From Candidatus Heimdallarchaeota archaeon (GTDB lineage Archaea > Asgardarchaeota > Heimdallarchaeia > Heimdallarchaeales > Heimdallarchaeaceae), in assembly GCA_021399395.1 (NCBI GenBank), contig JAAFKJ010000001.1, positions 7,357 through 71,356 of the forward strand: DNA of 64,000 nt, read 5' to 3'. The notes under the pieces are model-generated. The model had not been told where the DNA came from. It did not search any database and saw nothing but the letters and a program-made list of their open reading frames with translations. Positions 10,369 through 63,769 of this stretch are shown here, in pieces (within the stretch, counting starts at the first letter, position 1; every line of letters starts with the position of its first letter). Made by a program: the position numbers and the translations under genes.

Positions 10369-10442
10369 GCACGCATAGTCTAGTGGTAGGACCGAGGCTT
10401 CCCATGCCTCTAACCCGGGTTCGAGTCCCGGTGCGTGCACCA
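10369..10442 (+). tRNA. tRNA-Gly (anticodon CCC), CCA encoded in the genome
   Basis: Acceptor stem GCACGCA/TGCGTGC. Anticodon stem GAGGC/GCCTC with loop TTCCCAT. T arm CCGGG-TTCGAGT-CCCGG. Ends ACCA and is followed by a T-run. It is a G+C-rich island in AT-rich DNA. Confidence 0.9.
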
Positions 10443-47477: not shown

Positions 47478-48281
47478 TCATTGGGAGTTTTTCTTTTCTC
47501 TCATTTCCAATTTGTATTTTTTCAGGAGATTTTTATATTCTTCTGCTTTTTGTCCCGGATCATCAGAATAAACAATTGGACCTCCAACACAGATCATTGC
47601 ATTGTCATCAAAATTGTAAATTACACTTTTTACGATCAGGTGTTCGCTCCCATAAATAGGTGTTAAGGCAAGGATTTTCGATCCTATTGTTTCTTTCATT
47701 TTCCTAACATCTTTAACATCGATATGCTCTGCATTCCCTATCCAAAATCCATCTACTTGAGCTTTCTTACATCTCTCAGCGACATATAGATAGAGAGGTT
47801 GTTCACTTATGGTAGCAATCTTATAGAACATAGATTCTGGATTCGATAACAAGGTAAGAACAATTATTCCTAGTTTTCTTTGTTGAGCAAGAAGTGATGC
47901 CTTAGCTATATTAGCACTAAAAGGAGAAAATGTAAATGCATCAAAATTCTCTTCTTTGAACCAAAAAATCGCGGAATCATTTGAGGTGTCAATGTCACCT
48001 AGTTTATGGTCAATTATTGAAAGCATATTATTCTGGTGAATCAGAATATTGATTGATCTTATTTCATCAGATGTTAATCCGATTAAATATTGTCTATTAA
48101 GCTTGATTGCACAACTGTAAGGAGCAACATTTTTGATTATCCTTTTCATGAAATTAACTCTATCATCATCTAACATTACAGACCTTGAACGTTGAGATGG
48201 TAGAGCTGGATCTAAACTCACACAGAGCAAACTATCTTTGCTCTTAGAGATTGCAAGATATTGCTGGAGAAACTGTGACAT
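47478..48281 (-). CDS. orotidine-5'-phosphate decarboxylase-like paralog with degenerate C-terminal motifs
   Basis: LCVSLDP, AIKLN and IIDHKLGDID (DxKxxD) are retained. PG[VI]GAQGG reads TPIYGSEH, and VGRxI reads VGGPI. Confidence 0.7.
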   Translation of the reverse strand: MSQFLQQYLAISKSKDSLLCVSLDPALPSQRSRSVMLDDDRVNFMKRIIKNVAPYSCAIKLNRQYLIGLTSDEIRSINILIHQNNMLSIIDHKLGDIDTSNDSAIFWFKEENFDAFTFSPFSANIAKASLLAQQRKLGIIVLTLLSNPESMFYKIATISEQPLYLYVAERCKKAQVDGFWIGNAEHIDVKDVRKMKETIGSKILALTPIYGSEHLIVKSVIYNFDDNAMICVGGPIVYSDDPGQKAEEYKNLLKKYKLEMREKKNSQ

Positions 48282-48351
48282 CTATTAATTCCCATGGAGT
48301 TCATAGGAATCAACGTTTATAATTTTTATTTTTGTTTTCTCCATCATTTTT

Positions 48352-48367
48352 TTGCAGTGAAATGCAA
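48352..48367. promoter_or_regulatory. palindrome TTGCA-gtgaaa-TGCAA in the pyrF-like / pyrBI divergent spacer
   Basis: Read directly. It is the third exact copy of the same half-sites and spacing. Confidence 0.5.
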
Positions 48368-48442
48368 TAAAAACCCCTTTTTTCCTAAGAAATCGCATGA
48401 TTTATAACTGAAAATTTCTTTACTGAATTGGAAGATACGAGA

Positions 48443-49360
48443 ATGAATCTCGAACACTTATTTACAATAAGAAGAATGTCCAAAAATCTTATGGAGGACA
48501 TTTTCGATTTAGCTTCTTCTATAGAAGAAAAACCGGATTCTTTTGCTGAAAAATGCAAAGGAAAAATACTAGCTGCTCTCTTTTTTGAACCAAGTACCAG
48601 AACAAGATTATCCTTTGAAAGCGCTATGTTAAGACTTGGAGGACAAATTCTTGGGTTCTCAAGTGCAAAAGTAAGTAGTTCATCTAAAGGAGAGAGTATC
48701 GCTGATACCTTTAGAATGTTAAATCACTACGCGCACATAGCAGTAATTCGGCATTACATCGAAGGGATTGGAGAGATTGCTAAGGAATTTGCTACAATCC
48801 CAATGATATCTGGAGGTACAGGAACACAAGAACATCCGACTCAAGCACTGCTTGATCTTTATACCATAAGGAAGGAACTAGGAAAGGTAGACGATATAAC
48901 GATTGGAATCATGGGAGATTTACTCTATGGAAGAACAATACCCTCTCTTCTTTTTGGTTTAGCTAAATATGATAATGTGAAAGTTCATCTAATTTCTCCA
49001 CCAGCACTACATATACGTAAAAATGTAAAACTGCGCCTGGAAGAAAATGGTCTTGCTTTCAGAGTAACAGAAAATCACAAAGAAGTAATAGATGAACTAG
49101 ATGTGCTGTATGTGACACGCTTACAGAAAGAACGATTTCCTGACCCAACAGATTATGAGAGACTAAAAGGAGCATATCAGATCCGTAAATCTGATTTGAG
49201 AAAAGCAAAAGATAGCATGATAATTTTGCACCCTCTTCCAAGAGTAAGTGAGATTCCTTTTGAATTGGATGAACTAAAATATGCTAAGTATTTTGACCAA
49301 GCAAAAAATGGAGTATGGGTACGAATGGCTCTAATTCTTAAATATCTAGGAGTGGATTAA
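48443..49360 (+). CDS. pyrB: aspartate carbamoyltransferase catalytic subunit
   Basis: FFEPSTRTRLSFE, HPTQALLD, HPLPR. ATG 48443 is preferred; the track's TTG 48428 is possible. Confidence 0.92.
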   Translation: MNLEHLFTIRRMSKNLMEDIFDLASSIEEKPDSFAEKCKGKILAALFFEPSTRTRLSFESAMLRLGGQILGFSSAKVSSSSKGESIADTFRMLNHYAHIAVIRHYIEGIGEIAKEFATIPMISGGTGTQEHPTQALLDLYTIRKELGKVDDITIGIMGDLLYGRTIPSLLFGLAKYDNVKVHLISPPALHIRKNVKLRLEENGLAFRVTENHKEVIDELDVLYVTRLQKERFPDPTDYERLKGAYQIRKSDLRKAKDSMIILHPLPRVSEIPFELDELKYAKYFDQAKNGVWVRMALILKYLGVD

Positions 49361-49831
49361 ATGAATGAAGATAAGAATAAATTGATTGTAAGAAAAATAG
49401 AGAATGGAACAGTGATTGACAGAATTCCTCCAGGTAAAGCTTTGCGCATACTCGAGGTTTTAGGAATAGATGCAAATTACCCATATACAGTTGCACTCGC
49501 TATACGTGTTCTTTCCAAAAAAATGTCTCTTAAAGATGTAGTAAAAATCAAAGGTAAGGAATTAACAGAAAATGAAGTTCATAAGCTCTCATTTATTGCT
49601 CCAGGAGCATCTGTAAATATCATTCAGAATTTCGAGGTTCAGAGAAAAATACAGTTAGAAATTCCTGACCATGTTGAAGAATTTATCAAGTGTCTTAATC
49701 CAAATTGTGTTTCTAATTCCCATGAACCCATAACCTCATCATTTGATATAATTTCTAAAAAACCTTTGATTCTTAGATGTATCTACTGTGATAGAGTTAT
49801 GGAGGACAAATATCTAAGTGGAAAACTATAG
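49361..49831 (+). CDS. pyrI: aspartate carbamoyltransferase regulatory subunit
   Basis: LIVRKIENGTVIDRIP, C-terminal zinc domain CLNPNC...CIYC. Starts 1 nt after pyrB. Confidence 0.9.
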   Translation: MNEDKNKLIVRKIENGTVIDRIPPGKALRILEVLGIDANYPYTVALAIRVLSKKMSLKDVVKIKGKELTENEVHKLSFIAPGASVNIIQNFEVQRKIQLEIPDHVEEFIKCLNPNCVSNSHEPITSSFDIISKKPLILRCIYCDRVMEDKYLSGKL

Positions 49832-56718: not shown

Positions 56719-57401
56719 GTCAATTCCTCTTTTAAATTTTCAAAAATTATTTTTCCATCTTCTGATCCTAAATACAGAAAGCTGGCTCTTTCGGGATGGG
56801 GCATCATGCCTAACACATTGCCAGTTTTGTTAACTATCCCAGCTATATTTTCCAATGAACCATTTGGATTGCTTTCCTCATTAATTTCCCCCTGTTCATT
56901 GCAATAACTAAAGGCTATCTGATTATTATTTCCTAGCCTCTGGATGTTCGCTGGTTCGGAATAATAACGGCCTTCATAATGAGCAATTGGGAGCTTGAGT
57001 TTTTTATTTTCCATGCCTTTAAGTAAGGAGCATGAAGTTTGTTCAGTAGAGATATTTACCCACTTGCAGATGAATTTTGTAGAAGTGTTTGTAGTAAGTA
57101 TTCCAGGCAGTAATCCTAATTCACAGAGTATCTGAAAACCATTACAGATACCAATTACAAATTTGCCTGATTCAACATACTCTGGAAGTTTTTTTGCTAT
57201 AGGTGAATGAGATGCTATTGCACCTGGTCTTAGATAATCACCATAAGAGAACCCTCCTGCAATTATCAAAGCATCAACTTCTTCTAGAAGTTCAGAGTTA
57301 TTGGGAAAGATGTACTCATACCGAAGTCCCAGTGAACTTAAAACCCTAGCTACATCTTGTTCGTTATTTGTTCCTGGAAATTTAGTTATACCAATTTTCA
57401 G
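56712..57401 (-). CDS. purQ: phosphoribosylformylglycinamidine synthase subunit I (glutaminase); the start appears to be a non-canonical CTG
   Basis: GICNGFQIL (Cys nucleophile) and MPHPERA. The frame upstream of the track's ATG (57269) stays open and encodes (L)KIGITKFPGTNNEQDVARVL...DALIIAGGFSYGD, the conserved PurQ N-terminus. An in-frame TAA lies directly before CTG 57401..57399, and GGGTGAT lies 4 nt upstream. Confidence 0.85.
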   Translation of the reverse strand: MKIGITKFPGTNNEQDVARVLSSLGLRYEYIFPNNSELLEEVDALIIAGGFSYGDYLRPGAIASHSPIAKKLPEYVESGKFVIGICNGFQILCELGLLPGILTTNTSTKFICKWVNISTEQTSCSLLKGMENKKLKLPIAHYEGRYYSEPANIQRLGNNNQIAFSYCNEQGEINEESNPNGSLENIAGIVNKTGNVLGMMPHPERASFLYLGSEDGKIIFENLKEELTC

Positions 57402-57406
57402 TTATA

Positions 57407-58390
57407 TCACCCTTCGTTAGATGTCTCGAAATATTCCATGGATAACTTGGTTTCTTCAATCAAAGGATTTGAGAGAATTCTGTTGGATATTTCTTGTGTT
57501 TTTTTGTAAAGTGATTCAGAAGGAACGGATGAAAACTTGATACTAGCGTTTTTACCAAGTCTAACTGATTCAATATTCTCATATTCATTCCGTTTTAATG
57601 ACCTAAAAGTAACTTCACCGGCTGGGTCGAGAACTGAATCCTTTAGAGAAATCCGAATATTGGTTTTGGTGTTGAACTCTATATTAGGAAGTTCTGTGAT
57701 TGTTTCCAATCTTTCAAGTATATCCTTATAGTGTTGAATGACATCTCCAAGATCTTTTCGATATCTATCCTTATCCTTAATTTCCCCAGTATTAATTTCC
57801 CATAACCTCATTGTATCAGCTGAAATTTCATCTGCTATAATCAGTTTACCCTCATGACTTCTACCAAATTCAAGCTTAAAATCCACAAGTACAAGTGAGA
57901 TTGACTTGAATATATTTCTTAGAATATGATTCACTGCTAAAGTAACAGCTTTAATTATAGTTGCATCTTCACCCGATAGGTAGTTCATCAAGATTGCTGC
58001 TTCTTCTGTAATTAATGGATCATGTAATTCATCTTCCTTCAAAAAGAACTCAACTAAAGGTTGATCGAAGTTTGTTCCAATCTCAATCCCATATCTTCTA
58101 CAAAAACTTCCAGCAGCTATATTTCTACAAACTATTTCTACGGGAATTATATCGACTTTTTCACAAAGTAAATCTCTACTCGATATACTCTTGAGATAAT
58201 GTGTTTCTATATTATATTCATTCAAAATCTCAAATAGTTTTGCAGAAGTTCGGCAGTTAACTTCACCCTTATTCAGAAGTTCTTCTGTTTTTTCTCCATC
58301 AAATGCAGAAATCGAATCTCTAAAATGGATTTTAACTTCCTTTTCATCCAGAAGTTCTATATCTTTTGCTTTTCCAGAGTATCTCTCCAA
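57407..58390 (-). CDS. purC: SAICAR synthetase fused to a C-terminal PurS domain
   Basis: Residues 1 to ~235: YSGKAKDI, DSISAFDG, LVDFKLEFG (PurC). Residues ~241-327: IRISLKDSVLDPAGE...VRLGKNASIKF...ILSNPLIEE, matching PurS (compare VSLKESVLDPQG...VRIGK...LLANTVIED). TTG start. Confidence 0.88.
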   Translation of the reverse strand: MERYSGKAKDIELLDEKEVKIHFRDSISAFDGEKTEELLNKGEVNCRTSAKLFEILNEYNIETHYLKSISSRDLLCEKVDIIPVEIVCRNIAAGSFCRRYGIEIGTNFDQPLVEFFLKEDELHDPLITEEAAILMNYLSGEDATIIKAVTLAVNHILRNIFKSISLVLVDFKLEFGRSHEGKLIIADEISADTMRLWEINTGEIKDKDRYRKDLGDVIQHYKDILERLETITELPNIEFNTKTNIRISLKDSVLDPAGEVTFRSLKRNEYENIESVRLGKNASIKFSSVPSESLYKKTQEISNRILSNPLIEETKLSMEYFETSNEG

Positions 58391-58403
58391 ATTTTACACC
58401 ACT

Positions 58404-58419
58404 TTGCATTATTTTGCAA
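58404..58419. promoter_or_regulatory. palindrome TTGCA-ttattt-TGCAA (extends to TTTGCA/TGCAAA), just upstream of the purC-purS start
   Basis: Read directly from the sequence. It lies 13 nt from the TTG start of the minus-strand pur operon. Confidence 0.55.
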
Positions 58420-58548
58420 ATTAATGACTTTTTGAAACTGGGAATTTTAGTATGTATAGTTTTTAAACTTTCTGGATAATACTATTAAAAAACCTATAGA
58501 ATCAACTTAAGGGTTTATGAAAATACACAAATATAAAAAGATAAGTTC

Positions 58549-58564
58549 TTGCACAGTAATGCAA
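58549..58564. promoter_or_regulatory. palindrome TTGCA-cagtaa-TGCAA upstream of the HTH-PRTase gene
   Basis: Read directly. It lies about 9 nt downstream of the TATA-like ATATAAAAAG (58531..58540) and about 50 nt upstream of ATG 58614. Confidence 0.55.
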
Positions 58565-58613
58565 AACCTTTTCAATGATATGAAAAGGACTATATTGAAA
58601 AACAAGTGATATT

Positions 58614-59393
58614 ATGTCAAATGCAAGCACACCTGATAGTTATATTGATGCTCAAGAGAAACTAATGACACTTAATCTTCTTCAGATGGCCTTTAAAAAA
58701 TTCGACACTCTTGAAACATGCAGATCATTTCTTCAAGAACATGGGGTTGAGGTTTCTGTTGCAAACCTTTCTAGATATATCAACGGGAAAGCAATTCCAA
58801 AATCAAAACTCAAAAATTCTTTGCTCAAAGTCCTGATAGACAACAAAGAACTTGGTTTAACAATTAAAGAGCTCATAATCAAACACTTAGATATCAAGAC
58901 CGATGAAACAGGTATGATTACAGTAAACAATACCTATTTGCTAAATGACTCAAAAACCTTGAAAGCGATTTTATTTCTAGCAATCCAACAAGGCATTATT
59001 CCAAGAGAGGTTGATAAAGTGATAACTGCTGAAGTTGATGGAATTCCAATTGCAATGACTCTTGCTCATCTTCTTAACATTGATTGTGTTTATGCAAGGA
59101 AGAAGAAACCCATTGGTACCTCTGAGTTTCATAGTGAGGATATTATTTCAGCGAATACTAGTAGAATGGAGACAATCTATTTTCCAGATAAATTCATCAG
59201 AAAGAATGAGAGGGTTATAATCATCGATGACATTATTCGCTCAGGTGCAACACAAACGGCACTAGTTAATCTTGTAAATAAATGTGAAGGAATTCCTCTA
59301 AAAATCATCATACTAACTGGTGTTGGAGGACACTGGGAAAAAACTACTAAATTAAAGTTTACTGATTTCAAAACTCTAGTTACTCTAAAATAA
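58614..59393 (+). CDS. XRE-type HTH domain fused to a type I phosphoribosyltransferase domain; putative nucleotide-biosynthesis regulator
   Basis: N-terminal VSVANLSRYINGKAIPK (Cro/C1-like HTH recognition helix). C-terminal PRPP-binding loop VIIIDDIIRSGATQ. It lies divergent from the pur operon, 16 nt upstream of purP. Confidence 0.7.
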   Translation: MSNASTPDSYIDAQEKLMTLNLLQMAFKKFDTLETCRSFLQEHGVEVSVANLSRYINGKAIPKSKLKNSLLKVLIDNKELGLTIKELIIKHLDIKTDETGMITVNNTYLLNDSKTLKAILFLAIQQGIIPREVDKVITAEVDGIPIAMTLAHLLNIDCVYARKKKPIGTSEFHSEDIISANTSRMETIYFPDKFIRKNERVIIIDDIIRSGATQTALVNLVNKCEGIPLKIIILTGVGGHWEKTTKLKFTDFKTLVTLK

Positions 59394-59409: not shown

Positions 59410-60492
59410 ATGATTCAAGAACTGATAAAACAATATGATTATGAGAACATTAGTGTAGGAGTAATTGGATCCCACTCTGCTCTCGATATATTAGATGGTG
59501 CAAAAAAAACAAGATTCAAAACCACAGTAATTTGCGAAAAAGGAAGGGAAGAGCCCTATACAAGATTTGATAGGATCATAGATAATTTGATAATTTTAGA
59601 TAAGTTCTCGGACATATATTCAATCCAAGAGGAATTAAGAGAAGAGAATTGCATTTTCGTACCAAATCGTTCTTTTGCCGTGTATTGTAATACAAACCGA
59701 ATTGAAAAAGAATTTAGAGTGCCTTTGTTCGGTTCAAGAGAACTCCTAAAAGTTGAGGAAAGGGTAGGACTGCACAATTATTATGAAGTACTAGATGCAG
59801 CAAAAATAAAATATCCTAAAACTTTCAAAAATCCAGAGGAAATTGATTGTCCAGTCATATGCAAAATGCCTCATGCTAAACTTGAAGTTGAAAGAGGTTT
59901 CTTTGTAGCAAAAGATAAAGAAAATTTTTTTGAGGAATTCAATAAGCGTGTCGAAAATGGTACAATAAGAAGAGGTGATCTTTCTAAGGCATCGATAGAA
60001 GAATTCATTTCTGGTGTTACATTCAATTTCAATATCTTTTACTCCCCGATATATAATCGAACAGAATTAATTGGGATAGACCGTCGTTTTGTTACAGATC
60101 TAGATGGAATTGTACGTTTGCCTGCGGAACAACAACTTCAACTAGAACTTGAAGAAGAAATGAAAGAGATAGGCAACTATGCTGTTACTTTAAGAGAATC
60201 AATGTTAAGACACGTATTTCCAATGGCAGACGACTTCGTTAAAGCAACAAAGAAACTCTATCCTCCGGGCATTATTGGCCCATTTGCGCTTCAAACCATG
60301 ATAACTAAGGATTACGAATTCATAGTATTCGATGTATCCATGAGAATGGGTGGTGGAACAAATAGTTTCATGGGGACAGGCAGTCAATATTCAGCTGTTT
60401 ATTGGGGAGAACCAATCTCAGCAGGTAAGCGAGTTGGAATGGAAATAAGAAGAGCCGTTGAACAAAACAGATTGCAGTATATTGTAACTTGA
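59410..60492 (+). CDS. PurP-family ATP-grasp protein (5-formaminoimidazole-4-carboxamide ribonucleotide synthetase family), divergent paralog
   Basis: VIGSHSALDILDGAKK, VPLFGSRELL, PPGIIGPFALQ, GGGTNSF. Confidence 0.8.
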   Translation: MIQELIKQYDYENISVGVIGSHSALDILDGAKKTRFKTTVICEKGREEPYTRFDRIIDNLIILDKFSDIYSIQEELREENCIFVPNRSFAVYCNTNRIEKEFRVPLFGSRELLKVEERVGLHNYYEVLDAAKIKYPKTFKNPEEIDCPVICKMPHAKLEVERGFFVAKDKENFFEEFNKRVENGTIRRGDLSKASIEEFISGVTFNFNIFYSPIYNRTELIGIDRRFVTDLDGIVRLPAEQQLQLELEEEMKEIGNYAVTLRESMLRHVFPMADDFVKATKKLYPPGIIGPFALQTMITKDYEFIVFDVSMRMGGGTNSFMGTGSQYSAVYWGEPISAGKRVGMEIRRAVEQNRLQYIVT

Positions 60493-60526
60493 GAGTACTA
60501 ATAATCGTAAAAAGAAAATGAAGAAT

Positions 60527-60576
60527 ATTCAACATTCAAAGGATTACACTGAAGAATTCTTCGAATGATGTTGAAT
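60527..60576. repeat. nested inverted repeat between the two purP paralogs
   Basis: Outer arms ATTCAACAT (60527..60535) and ATGTTGAAT (60568..60576). They enclose the perfect 12-bp palindrome GAAGAATTCTTC (60551..60562). Confidence 0.6.
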
Positions 60577-60616
60577 GTTAGACTAAAGAAATAAAAACAG
60601 TTTCAAAAACTACGAT

Positions 60617-61621
60617 GTGAATAACTTGATAATCTCAACCATAGGAAGTCATTCCGCACTTCAAATATTATTTGGAGCTAAACAAGAGAATTTCAATACC
60701 AAAGTATATTGCTTAAAGGACCGAGATAGTCTTTACCGAAGATATCCCGTCGCAAATGAAATAGTCACACTTGATTCTTATGAAGATCTTCTAGAAATTG
60801 CTGCTGATTCCCAAGAAATTTTTATTCCTCATGGTACTCTGATTGCGGCTCTAGGAGACAAATTAAGGGACATTTCTATACCTATGTTTGGAAATAGAGA
60901 GGGGATGTTGTGGGAGATGAATCGAGCAAAGAATCAAAAACTTCTGGAAACTGCAGGAATTAGAGTTCCTCGAACACTGAAATCTGATGATATCACCGAG
61001 TTAGCGATCGTGAAATTTCCAGGAGCTATGGGTGGTTCAGGGTATTTTGTTTGCTCCTCCTCTGATGAATTCGATACCAAAATTAATGATTTAGTCTCTC
61101 AAAATAAGATCTCAGATTATGACATTAAAAATGCCCAAATTCAAGAGTATGTAACTGGAGTAACTATGTATCCCCATTACTTCTATTCTGGGATCTATGA
61201 AAGAGTTGAGATGCTTGGAATAGATAGGAGATATGAAACCAACGTAGATGCGCTAGGTCGATTATCTCAGAACGATCATCCAGTTGAACCCTCATATAAG
61301 GTAGTTGGGAATCAACCTTTAATTGCAAGAGAATCTCTATTACCACAAATCCTAGAACATGGTGATAAATTGAGGGAAGCTTCAACAAATCTTTTTGCAC
61401 CAGGTTTGATAGGTCCATATTGTATAGAAATGGCCATTACATCAGAAGAGATAGTTGCTTTTGAATTTACTAGCAGAATTGTAGCGGGTACAAGTTTGTA
61501 TGTAAACGGTTCACCTTATTCAAAGATCTTATTCAATGAAGAAATGAGTATGGCTAAGCGTATTGCAAGGGAGATAAAAATGGCAATGGGGCAAAGAAGG
61601 CTGCAGGAGTTCCTTACATAA
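60617..61621 (+). CDS. purP: 5-formaminoimidazole-4-carboxamide-1-(beta)-D-ribofuranosyl 5'-monophosphate synthetase
   Basis: STIGSHSALQILFGAKQ, IPMFGNRE, VKFPGAMGGSGYF, ARESLLPQ, APGLIGPYC, MAKRIAREIKMA. GTG start. Confidence 0.85.
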   Translation: MNNLIISTIGSHSALQILFGAKQENFNTKVYCLKDRDSLYRRYPVANEIVTLDSYEDLLEIAADSQEIFIPHGTLIAALGDKLRDISIPMFGNREGMLWEMNRAKNQKLLETAGIRVPRTLKSDDITELAIVKFPGAMGGSGYFVCSSSDEFDTKINDLVSQNKISDYDIKNAQIQEYVTGVTMYPHYFYSGIYERVEMLGIDRRYETNVDALGRLSQNDHPVEPSYKVVGNQPLIARESLLPQILEHGDKLREASTNLFAPGLIGPYCIEMAITSEEIVAFEFTSRIVAGTSLYVNGSPYSKILFNEEMSMAKRIAREIKMAMGQRRLQEFLT

Positions 61622-61632
61622 AAGGTGATGAA

Positions 61633-63141
61633 ATGGATAAAATCGGAGTATTTGATTTTGGTGGCCAATATTGCCATCTTATTGCTAGAAGGATTAGAGA
61701 TTTAGGTGTTTATGCTGAGATAATCTATGAACCTTCTCAGGAGTACAAAGGTTTCATTTTATCAGGGGGACCGGGTAATATCTCTGAAGAAGAAGCACCC
61801 CAATTACCAGAAGAATTCTTCAATGAGGTGGAAGTACCAGTTCTTGGGATATGTTATGGTCATCAAATGATTGCACAGACTTTTGGAGGAAAAGTTGAAA
61901 GAGGGAGAGAAAGAGAATACGGGAAGAAAACAGCCATTCTTGAAAACTCTTCTTCTTTGTTTAAGGGTTTGAATAAGGAGGAACAAGTCTGGATGTCACA
62001 TTATGATCAAGTTACGATTCTACCTGATGATTTCGATGTCATTGGTTCAACTGACATCTGTGGAATAGCAGCATATCAAAACATCCACAAAAATATTTTT
62101 GGGGTCCAATTTCATCCAGAAGTCATTCACACTATAAATGGCACTAAAATTCTTAAAAACTTTTTAGATATTATTGGATGTAAGAGAGAATGGAAACTAA
62201 GTCAATGGGTGGAAAAGAAAATACACGAACTGCAAACAGAGATAGGTTCTAACAGAGTAATCATGGCAGTTAGTGGAGGAGTAGATAGTACAGTAGCTGC
62301 TGCACTTCTAACTAAAGCTAAGATAAACGCTCATTTCATACATGTAGACACTGGTCTCATGAGATTGAATGAATCAGAGGAAGTAGCAAAAATTTTCGAG
62401 GATTTGGGCACGGAAAACCTTCATATTGTAGATGCTAAAAAAAGATTTTTTAAGAGATTAGAAGATATCTCTGATCCAGAATTAAAGCGGAAGATAATTG
62501 GAAACCTCTTTATCGATATTTTTGAAGAAGAATCTGATAGATTAGACAATTTTGATTTCTTAGGACAAGGAACAATATATCCAGATAGAATAGAAAGCGC
62601 TCAACCAAGTAAACATGCAAGTGTAATCAAAACCCACCATAATGTTGGTGGTCTTCCTGAAAGAATGAAGTTAAAATTAATTGAGCCTCTCAATGAGCTT
62701 TACAAGGATGAAGTCAGAAAAATAGGCGAGATGTTAGGTCTTCCAAAGAGATACATTGATAGACACCCATTCCCAGGTCCGGCTCTTGCAATCAGGATCT
62801 TAGGCATAGTTACTGAAGAGAGAGTGGATATATTAAGAAAAGCTGATGCGATTGTTACACAAATCATAGAGAATAATGGTATTTATGATTCTCTTTGGCA
62901 AGTTTTTCCTGCACTCATCCCTGTTAAATCTGTAGGTGTGATGGGAGATAAAAGAACATATGAATATATCTTAACCATTAGAGCTGTTGAATCAGTAGAC
63001 GCGATGACAGCTGATTGGGCAAGATTAGATTATGATGTTTTAGAAGAAATATCCACAAAGATCATCAATAAAGTAAATGGTGTGAATAGAGTCCTATATG
63101 ATATCACCAGCAAACCCCCAGGTACAATTGAATATGAATAA
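61633..63141 (+). CDS. guaA: GMP synthase (glutamine-hydrolysing), with GATase and ATP-pyrophosphatase domains fused
   Basis: GICYGHQ, FHPEV, SGGVDSTV (PP-loop), C-terminal KPPGTIEYE. ATG is preceded by AGGTGATG. Confidence 0.93.
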   Translation: MDKIGVFDFGGQYCHLIARRIRDLGVYAEIIYEPSQEYKGFILSGGPGNISEEEAPQLPEEFFNEVEVPVLGICYGHQMIAQTFGGKVERGREREYGKKTAILENSSSLFKGLNKEEQVWMSHYDQVTILPDDFDVIGSTDICGIAAYQNIHKNIFGVQFHPEVIHTINGTKILKNFLDIIGCKREWKLSQWVEKKIHELQTEIGSNRVIMAVSGGVDSTVAAALLTKAKINAHFIHVDTGLMRLNESEEVAKIFEDLGTENLHIVDAKKRFFKRLEDISDPELKRKIIGNLFIDIFEEESDRLDNFDFLGQGTIYPDRIESAQPSKHASVIKTHHNVGGLPERMKLKLIEPLNELYKDEVRKIGEMLGLPKRYIDRHPFPGPALAIRILGIVTEERVDILRKADAIVTQIIENNGIYDSLWQVFPALIPVKSVGVMGDKRTYEYILTIRAVESVDAMTADWARLDYDVLEEISTKIINKVNGVNRVLYDITSKPPGTIEYE

Positions 63142-63160
63142 AATGATAAAGGTTAGAAAA

Positions 63161-63769
63161 ATGAAAGCAAATTTGCAAGAACTGACAAAGCAGATTATTA
63201 AGCAGGGAATTTTGAAGTTTGGCGATTTTACCTTGAAATCAGGTAAAAAATCCTGGTTCTATCTCGATTTAAGATTGATATCATCTTTTCCAGATACTTT
63301 TAATTTCGTAATCAAATGTTATAAAAAGAAATTAAAAGAAATAGGTAAATATGACGCTGTAGTAGGTGTAGCTGTAGCTGGTGTGCCTTTTTCTGCTGTT
63401 TTGGGTTACACTTTGAACATTCCCTCCTTAATTATAAGGACGCAAAAAAAAGATCATGGTTTGAGGAATAAAATTGAGGGGTTTCTTCCAGAAAAATCAA
63501 CTATTGTTCTCATAGATGATTTAATAACGACAGGTTCTAGCAAAATTCCTGGCATACTTGCATTACGTGAAATGGGATATGTTGTAAAAGATATGTTGGT
63601 TTTAGTTGACCGAAGCCAAGGTCATAGTGGTCAAATTGATCAACTAGGAGTAAAACTTCATTCATTTGCTTCAATTGAGCAGATATTTACAGAAAGCCTA
63701 CATCTTGATGATGACATTTTAGATGAGAAAACAAGAGAAATTATAGCTAAAAATCTTAGAACCGATTAA
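63161..63769 (+). CDS. pyrE: orotate phosphoribosyltransferase
   Basis: GDFTLKSGKKSWFYLDLR, PRT loop IVLIDDLITTGSS. Start is ATG 63161 or 63143; the track's 63098 overlaps guaA. Confidence 0.88.
   Translation: MKANLQELTKQIIKQGILKFGDFTLKSGKKSWFYLDLRLISSFPDTFNFVIKCYKKKLKEIGKYDAVVGVAVAGVPFSAVLGYTLNIPSLIIRTQKKDHGLRNKIEGFLPEKSTIVLIDDLITTGSSKIPGILALREMGYVVKDMLVLVDRSQGHSGQIDQLGVKLHSFASIEQIFTESLHLDDDILDEKTREIIAKNLRTD

Follow-up and report, generated by a model that had tools for sequence, protein, structure and literature searches.

The spacer between a purine-biosynthesis (pur) operon and a divergent gene for a 259-aa protein that contains a helix-turn-helix (HTH) and a phosphoribosyltransferase (PRTase) domain carries two palindromes of the form TTGCA-N6-TGCAA. 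The spacer lies in a 64,000-nt stretch of contig JAAFKJ010000001.1 of Candidatus Heimdallarchaeota archaeon, the whole of which is called the window below. From sequence comparisons, we consider it probable that these palindromes and their relatives near pyrB and purP2 are operators of a nucleotide-biosynthesis regulon of the Heimdallarchaeia, most likely bound by the HTH-PRTase protein itself (58614-59393, plus strand). By analogy, this protein is most likely an archaeal equivalent of PurR, the purine repressor of bacteria, and it appears to be undescribed. An earlier reading of the window (the original prediction) had proposed an operator common to pur and pyr promoters, with the HTH-PRTase protein as its putative, self-regulating binder, and this core idea received strong support from footprinting in about 20 genomes.

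Palindromic elements in the window

An exhaustive two-strand scan of the window gave exactly three matches to TTGCA-N6-TGCAA, at 58404, 58549 and 48352. These are the three exact copies that had been counted by eye, and their positions and sequences were as first described. Copy 1 is TTGCAttatttTGCAA (58404-58419), the arms of which lengthen to TTTGCA/TGCAAA (58403-58420), and it is 13 nt away from 58390, the TTG at which the purC-purS fusion starts on the minus strand. Copy 2 is TTGCAcagtaaTGCAA (58549-58564); the AT-rich sequence ATATAAAAAG (58531-58540) ends 8 nt before it, and the ATG of the regulator gene, at 58614, is 49 nt downstream. Copy 3, TTGCAgtgaaaTGCAA (48352-48367), is located within the spacer between pyrB and a pyrF-like gene. 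A probable fourth site is TTGCAgtatatTGTAA (60472-60487), a copy with one mismatch that is found where purP1 ends, upstream of purP2.

The full element, as deduced from related loci, is an 18-bp palindrome with the consensus tTTGCA-nTATAn-TGCAAa. At this length, the window contains site A, the putative purC-proximal operator (58403-58420, TTTGCATTATTTTGCAAA), site B, the putative regulator-proximal operator (58548-58565, CTTGCACAGTAATGCAAA), and the pyr site in the pyrF-like/pyrB spacer (48351-48368, TTTGCAGTGAAATGCAAT), all three with an exact core. The candidate fourth site (60471-60488, ATTGCAGTATATTGTAAC) covers the last codons of purP1, 129 nt before purP2. A distance of 11 bp, close to one turn of the helix, separates the centres of the half-sites, and this fits a dimer with two HTH domains in successive major grooves.

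In an AT-rich genome, a motif that fixes only 10 bases could arise by chance in AT-rich intergenic DNA. Against this, the chance expectation for the window is 0.14 occurrences versus the three observed, and three copies were reached in none of 100 dinucleotide-preserving shuffles. With one mismatch allowed, 9 matches were found versus 3.6 expected. A scoring matrix was also built from other genomes alone, with the window sites left out. Its top four positions in the 64 kb were 58403 (23.8 bits), 58548 (17.6 bits), 48351 (17.6 bits) and 60471 (16.2 bits), and matches of at least 15 bits numbered 4 versus 0.13 in 200 shuffles. Chance origin was rejected on the shuffle statistics and on this window-free ranking and, with the positions kept across about 20 genomes, its probability appears negligible.

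Conservation in related loci

Twenty-three Heimdallarchaeial loci of up to 20 kb each were fetched, in every one of which the 259-aa protein has an orthologue with 50-88% identity, and three extra loci (L097, L100 and L098) were obtained independently through PurC. The 23 loci contain 16 exact copies of the motif, distributed over 11 loci and all situated 50-235 nt upstream of the regulator orthologue. When one mismatch was allowed, both sites were present in every locus with divergent purC and regulator genes, and likewise in the three PurC-derived loci. In all 15 loci with the divergent arrangement, the position of the site A orthologue is unchanged and site B is kept at a distance of 50-170 nt on the upstream side of the regulator start; the two sites are 129-164 bp apart. 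The comparison of orthologous spacers called for by the original prediction found both sites kept in about 20 related Heimdallarchaeial genomes wherever the two genes are divergent.

In L002, the regulator gene lies beside a pyrF-like gene, yet two exact sites are found upstream of it; the regulator gene there is part of a pyrimidine cluster, with the pyrF-like gene divergent from it, then a convergent pyrD, pyrK and a pyrC-like amidohydrolase gene. In L098, which belongs to a distant lineage and encodes a diverged regulator, sites of the TTTACA-N6-TGTAAA type, changed in both arms, occupy the same two positions.

The matrix was also run over 414 kb of Heimdall loci, where all but one of the matches of at least 14.5 bits fell at pur or pyr loci, namely in the purC/regulator spacer, at the purP1/purP2 junction or in the pyrF-like/pyrB spacer. 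A similar density in coding DNA or at unrelated promoters, which had been named beforehand as evidence against an operator, was not seen across these 414 kb apart from that single match. A single match of at least 13 bits was found in 804 kb of loci of distant relatives outside the Heimdallarchaeia.

The exceptional match (L002, 2056-2073, TTTACATTATAGTGGAAA, 15.5 bits) is 38 nt upstream of a major facilitator superfamily (MFS) transporter gene, which is divergent from a class-III aminotransferase gene. The MFS gene may be an extra regulon member, for example a nucleobase transporter. An MFS gene is likewise found near the regulator gene in L100.

The pyr and purP1/purP2 sites

A metagenome scan for pyrB yielded one close relative (L081), and other pyrB orthologues were found through protein look-ups. 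The pyr site upstream of pyrB has an exact core in L081 and L094 and is degenerate in L093 and L096. It can be assigned to pyrB because the upstream neighbour in L093 and L094 is an unrelated co-directional gene, not the pyrF-like gene. The site precedes the TATA-like box of pyrB by 21-33 nt.

The pyrB gene of the window also contains a weaker palindrome, TTTGCTGAAAAATGCAAA (48542-48559, 13.3 bits), at a distance of 191 bp from the pyr site. L081 has an equivalent with the same spacing (1420-1437), and L093 and L094 have none. The palindrome may be a second operator, the two then flanking the pyrB promoter, or it may only reflect conserved coding sequence (FA[ED]KCK).

The element at the purP1/purP2 junction was also found in L001, L004, L006, L013 and L097. 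Since the window copy overlaps the last purP1 codons, its conservation is confounded by coding constraint. In L007, L009, L011 and L012, the site is intergenic and forms a conserved island amid variable spacer. The two purP genes (59410-61621) are tandem paralogues of the formate-dependent FAICAR synthetase family, a tandem kept across the Heimdall loci, and the promoter-like spacer and operator between them suggest separate control.

Promoter geometry

Of 15 loci, 13 have a TATA box (TTTATTAA, TTTATAAA or TTTATATA) that ends 39 nt before site A in the purC sense, and in the other two the distance is 40 and 41 nt. The box predicted in the window is TTTAAAAA (58460-58467, minus strand). A GGTG-type Shine-Dalgarno sequence follows site A by 0-3 nt. 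With the usual archaeal spacing between TATA box and transcription start, site A would extend from about +18 to about +35, counted from the predicted start of purC transcription; it is predicted to lie within the early transcribed region and not upstream of the purC promoter.

The geometry at site B is different. In the window, a T-rich TATA-like box (CTTTTCAA, 58568-58575, plus strand) directly downstream of site B is a candidate regulator promoter, and a T/A-rich TATA-like box is found 2-12 nt after site B in most orthologous loci. The position of TTTATATA in L003 and L005, 22 nt before the regulator ATG, suggests that the transcript is leaderless and that the operator covers the transcription factor B (TFB)-recognition element (BRE). 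The alternative candidate for the regulator TATA box in the window is ATATAAAAAG, on the upstream side of site B. The proposal that copy 2 occludes the regulator transcription start depends on this upstream box being the TATA box, and the box that recurs in the orthologues lies downstream of site B. Site B may thus overlap the BRE instead of the start region.

DNA element versus RNA hairpin

As an alternative to a DNA operator, the palindromes could be hairpins of the 5'-leader RNA that act on translation or attenuation, perhaps bound by a PRTase-domain protein. The PRTase family offers a precedent in PyrR, an RNA-binding attenuator in Bacillus; PyrR is also mentioned in PMC10838023. Site A is indeed predicted to be transcribed and abuts the Shine-Dalgarno sequence, and at sites A and B the majority of variants with a change in one arm would still allow G-U pairing in the sense strand. 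Covariation, however, is absent. Among 38 sense-oriented sites, 91.7% of the cells pair versus 91.6% expected from column composition, and the arm covariation score is 0.086 versus 0.091 after shuffling. Independent single-arm changes split about evenly between wobble-compatible and stem-breaking ones.

Broken stems are seen in site A of L015, in each of the four purP2 sites that are intergenic, and in the sites of L093 and L096. Where stems are predicted, they consist of 5-6 AU-rich pairs with minimum free energies from 0 to -4.6 kcal/mol. An Rfam scan of the window returned one tRNA only (the single tRNA gene at 10369-10439) and no family at the palindromes. In addition, some sites are unlikely to fall in the leader of the same transcript, and the neighbouring protein carries an HTH. 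The arms of the palindrome are conserved as sequence, not as base pairs. An RNA hairpin, a riboswitch and PyrR-type attenuation were rejected on the lack of covariation, the broken and weak stems and the lack of an Rfam family, which also disposes of the hairpin that had been suggested for copy 1 in the pur leader. We regard an RNA element as very unlikely.

The HTH-PRTase protein

The C-terminal two-thirds of the 259-aa protein form a type I PRTase domain (Pfam Pribosyltran), and the nearest solved relative by sequence is PurR of Bacillus subtilis. In an AlphaFold AF2 model (pLDDT 92), the protein shows a PRTase fold and an N-terminal helical bundle including helices 33-42 and 49-56. The fold is that of adenine PRTases (APRT), with a TM-score of about 0.84: Foldseek matched human, Escherichia coli and Yersinia APRT with E values of about 1e-13 and target-normalised TM-scores of 0.80-0.85. 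The loop that binds phosphoribosyl pyrophosphate (PRPP) is intact, VIIIDDIIRSGAT being aligned with VLIIDDFMKAGGT of PurR, and residues D206, G211 and T213 are invariant across the family. All APRT equivalog models scored far under their cut-offs.

As to the N-terminus, the Pfam HTH_3 model (PF01381) matches the aligned columns of distant homologues, with 31.1 bits in P0057, which passes, and 20.5 bits in P0058. Residues L52, R54, Y55, G58 and P62 of the HTH region are invariant in the alignment with P0057-P0060. On the basis of sequence alignment and the structural model, the protein is predicted to consist of a Cro/C1-type HTH at the N-terminus and, joined to it, a domain like that of adenine PRTases.

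The protein was compared with the curated families of similar architecture. It scored 58.7 bits with TIGR01743 (Bacillus-type PurR, cut-off 258.7), where only the PRTase part aligns, and 17.9 bits with the GfcR model NF045507 (cut-off 300). With PRK08558/NF006328 (cut-off 184), the window protein scored 129.7 bits and the Heimdall clade 112-143 bits, whereas relatives from Helarchaeota and Bathyarchaeia pass with 269-289 bits. The alignment to PRK08558 runs end to end over both domains, residues 15-240 being matched to model positions 9-218 of 238. Membership in Bacillus-type PurR, GfcR or strict PRK08558 was rejected, as all scores are under the curated cut-offs. From these alignments, we read the Heimdall proteins as a divergent, pur/pyr-linked branch, or sister subfamily, of the uncharacterised PRK08558 family. 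The distant members that pass the PRK08558 cut-off (Bathyarchaeia and others, L024-L080) are not linked to pur or pyr genes, and the conserved Heimdall-type motif was not found in their loci.

Palindromes that recur upstream of these distant homologues were of two kinds only. Several Bathyarchaeial loci have the tRNA-like arms AGGGGATTTGAACCCCT and CTGGGTTCAAATCCCAG 170-220 nt upstream of the PRK08558 homologue. In L037, L066 and L070, ATGAG-N2-CTCAT is present at -18 to -30 and may be another operator, for the PRK08558 branch.

Identity of the binder

The regulator is linked to the palindromes by association. Sites are found upstream of its gene in both layouts, next to purC and, in L002, next to the pyrF-like gene, and the diverged regulator of L098 is accompanied by sites that are changed in both arms. 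Several observations weigh against this assignment or against its generality. No good site was found upstream of the regulator in L016-18, L020 and L022-23, in all of which the gene lies beside the pyrF-like gene, and self-regulation is therefore not universal. No site was found at the pyrD-pyrK-pyrC-pyrF operon just past the window, nor upstream of purC in L099, a distant Heimdall pur operon that has no adjacent regulator gene and whose genome may or may not encode the regulator. The N-terminus of the window protein is itself under Pfam significance for HTH_3 (E = 0.11, 12.9 bits versus 23). Finally, the operator positions vary: about +18 at purC, next to the TATA box or BRE at the regulator gene, between about -60 and -70 at pyrB, and over 100 nt upstream of purP2. 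One simple occlusion mechanism cannot account for all of them.

These points leave room for a genuine nucleotide-regulon operator bound by another factor encoded elsewhere, the HTH-PRTase protein then being an enzyme or a regulator with different targets. The six regulator-bearing loci with no site upstream of the regulator and the low score of the window HTH would agree with another binder, as would the NCBI models, in which members of the PRK08558 family are named adenine phosphoribosyltransferase; moreover, it is association in sequence that suggests binding of the HTH-PRTase protein to the 18-mers. On the other side, two sites stand directly upstream of the regulator gene in both layouts, the diverged regulator of L098 is matched by the diverged half-site TTACA/TGTAA at the same positions, and the protein follows the domain logic of PurR and GfcR. 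Another binder thus appears improbable, and the HTH-PRTase protein is retained as the likely one. What the comparisons show is the motif with its significance, conservation, fixed geometry and confinement to pur/pyr loci, together with the domains of the protein; from these we infer which protein binds, where the transcripts start, which ligand is sensed and whether control at a given site is negative or positive.

Proposed mode of action

In the mechanism that we propose, a dimer of the HTH-PRTase protein would bind the 18-mers. Binding at site A would block polymerase recruitment or early elongation and so repress the eight-gene pur operon. Site B, which abuts the core promoter of the regulator-purP1 transcript, would mediate self-regulation, the sign of which is uncertain. 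Through the sites at pyrB and at the purP1/purP2 junction, this control would extend to pyrBI and probably to purP2-guaA-pyrE. Both sites are too far upstream for simple occlusion and may be loop partners, roadblocks to read-through or activating sites. The PRTase domain would be the sensor, and its ligand would alter the affinity for DNA; by analogy with PurR, PRPP is the leading candidate, or else a purine nucleotide or base.

The same protein might instead activate some or all of these promoters, or have a dual function that depends on position, sites B and pyr serving to recruit TATA-binding protein (TBP) and TFB. Operators just upstream of the TATA box are typical of archaeal activators, and SurR and TrmBL1 have dual functions by position. 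In most orthologues a TATA-like box comes immediately after site B, and the pyrB site precedes its TATA box by 21-33 nt. PurR of Lactococcus has been cited as an activator (PMC10838023). Activation is opposed by the fixed place of site A, 39 nt downstream of the purC TATA box, which is a position of the repressor type, and by the fact that site B of the window also lies between ATATAAAAAG and the predicted start. Biosynthetic operons with a common operator are, besides, most simply co-repressed. We consider activation or dual function rather unlikely, and repression, at least at site A, remains our preferred interpretation.

A more far-reaching possibility, which we put forward tentatively and with some doubt, is that the Heimdallarchaeia independently built a PurR-like master regulator of purine and pyrimidine synthesis from a Cro/C1 HTH and an APRT-like PRPP sensor, acting through DNA-looping operator pairs. 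The purC core promoter would then be bracketed by operators about 150 bp apart, site B about 100 bp upstream and site A 39 bp downstream of the TATA box, and two dimers would loop the DNA and shut the promoter in. The isolated operators at pyrB and purP1/purP2 would serve as loop partners or as roadblocks to read-through.

Gene context

The gene calls of the original prediction for the pur/regulator region hold with Pfam and NCBIfam. The pur operon, the proposed target of site A, extends from 58390 to 49826 on the minus strand and comprises purC-purS, purQ, purL, purE, purM, purN, purF and purD (Pfam); the purC-purS fusion covers 57407-58390 (Pfam/NCBIfam). On the plus strand, the gene for the proposed regulator (Cro/C1-like HTH plus PRTase) is followed by purP1, purP2, guaA and pyrE (59410-63769; Pfam, NCBIfam), the proposed targets of site B and of the site at 60471. 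The order regulator-purP1-purP2-guaA-pyrE is kept across the Heimdall loci. About 10 kb to the left of the purC/regulator spacer, pyrB-pyrI (aspartate carbamoyltransferase; 48443-49831, plus strand; Pfam), the proposed target of the pyr site, is divergent from a gene of the orotidine monophosphate (OMP) decarboxylase family (47478-48281, minus strand). The latter matches PF00215, scores under the pyrF NCBIfam cut-offs and is the pyrF-like paralogue referred to above. A second OMP-decarboxylase paralogue, 48% identical to that of the window, is located just past the right end of the window (L101, 10699-11478) and belongs to the pyrD-pyrK-pyrC-pyrF operon.

Some start codons may also need revision. 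As called by the open reading frame (ORF) caller, purQ encodes 185 aa from a TTG at 57269, and the apparent 137-nt gap before it is an artefact. The frame runs on as far as the CTG at 57404 that immediately follows the purC-purS stop, and it encodes LKIGITKFPGTNNEQD, a typical PurQ N-terminus; a GGTGAT Shine-Dalgarno sequence is found 4 nt upstream of this CTG. As PurQ orthologues have 229 aa and the frame extends to the CTG, the purQ start codon is probably non-canonical. The start of pyrB is more likely the ATG at 48443 than the TTG at 48428, because the identical database protein P0062 has 305 aa. The guaA and pyrE ORFs as called share 44 nt (63098-63141), and pyrE may start further downstream.

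Significance and comparison with known regulators

Asgard archaea are the closest prokaryotic relatives of eukaryotes and, to our knowledge, their gene-specific transcription control is almost wholly uncharted. In a literature search whose coverage left out most subscription journals, no description was found of this regulator, operator or family, nor of a purine regulator in any archaeon, nor of a tested function for the PRK08558 family. The system offers a testable module with a defined 18-bp operator, an expressible candidate regulator and a plausible ligand (PRPP or a nucleotide), set in a fixed promoter geometry on eukaryote-like TBP/TFB/RNA polymerase machinery. If the proposal is true, the annotation of a widespread family now named adenine phosphoribosyltransferase would be corrected. 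With PurR as the first case and GfcR as a parallel, it would also show for a second time, independently, that a PRTase enzyme fold has been recruited as the sensor of a transcription factor.

Control of pur and pyr genes by one regulator is known from E. coli, where PurR of the LacI family represses both through a 16-bp palindromic operator and at some targets acts as a roadblock downstream of the transcription start. In fold that protein is unrelated, being made of a LacI HTH and a periplasmic-binding-protein domain, neither of which is present here, and its corepressors are hypoxanthine and guanine.

PurR of B. subtilis and other Firmicutes (TIGR01743; PDB 1O57, 1P4A and 7RMW) is closer. It shares with the Heimdall protein a DNA-binding domain joined to a PRTase-like effector domain with a PRPP loop, gene linkage to the pur operon, and operators that occur in pairs in the pur control region. 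Both PurR and PRTases form dimers, and PRPP relieves DNA binding by PurR (PMC8789054). The N-terminus of Firmicutes PurR, however, is a winged helix instead of a Cro/C1-type HTH, and the PurR winged-helix Pfam domain had no match in any of 20 members of the present family. The domain arrangement is also different, full-length superposition on 1O57 and 1P4A giving a root-mean-square deviation of about 13 Å. The PurR operator consists of two 14-bp PurBoxes with a central CGAA, separated by 16-17 bp and located upstream of the -35 region (PMC8789054), whereas the element described here is one 18-bp TTGCA/TGCAA palindrome. Unlike that of Firmicutes PurR, the proposed regulon also takes in pyrBI.

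By architecture, the closest regulator is GfcR of Haloferax volcanii, an archaeal transcription factor with an N-terminal HTH and a PRTase-like domain in which catalysis is lost or possibly lost (PMC10838023). GfcR, which resembles PyrE, is an activator of sugar catabolism and a sensor of sugar phosphates, while the protein studied here is APRT-like and stands in a pur/pyr context. Members of PRK08558/NF006328 have the same two-domain architecture, but those that pass the cut-off lie away from pur and pyr genes and lack the motif. Judged by sequence, the Heimdall protein thus resembles Bacillus PurR in its putative function and GfcR most nearly in its architecture, and is a member of neither family: its DNA-binding domain, operator, proposed regulon (pur plus pyrBI) and host lineage all differ from those of PurR and GfcR.

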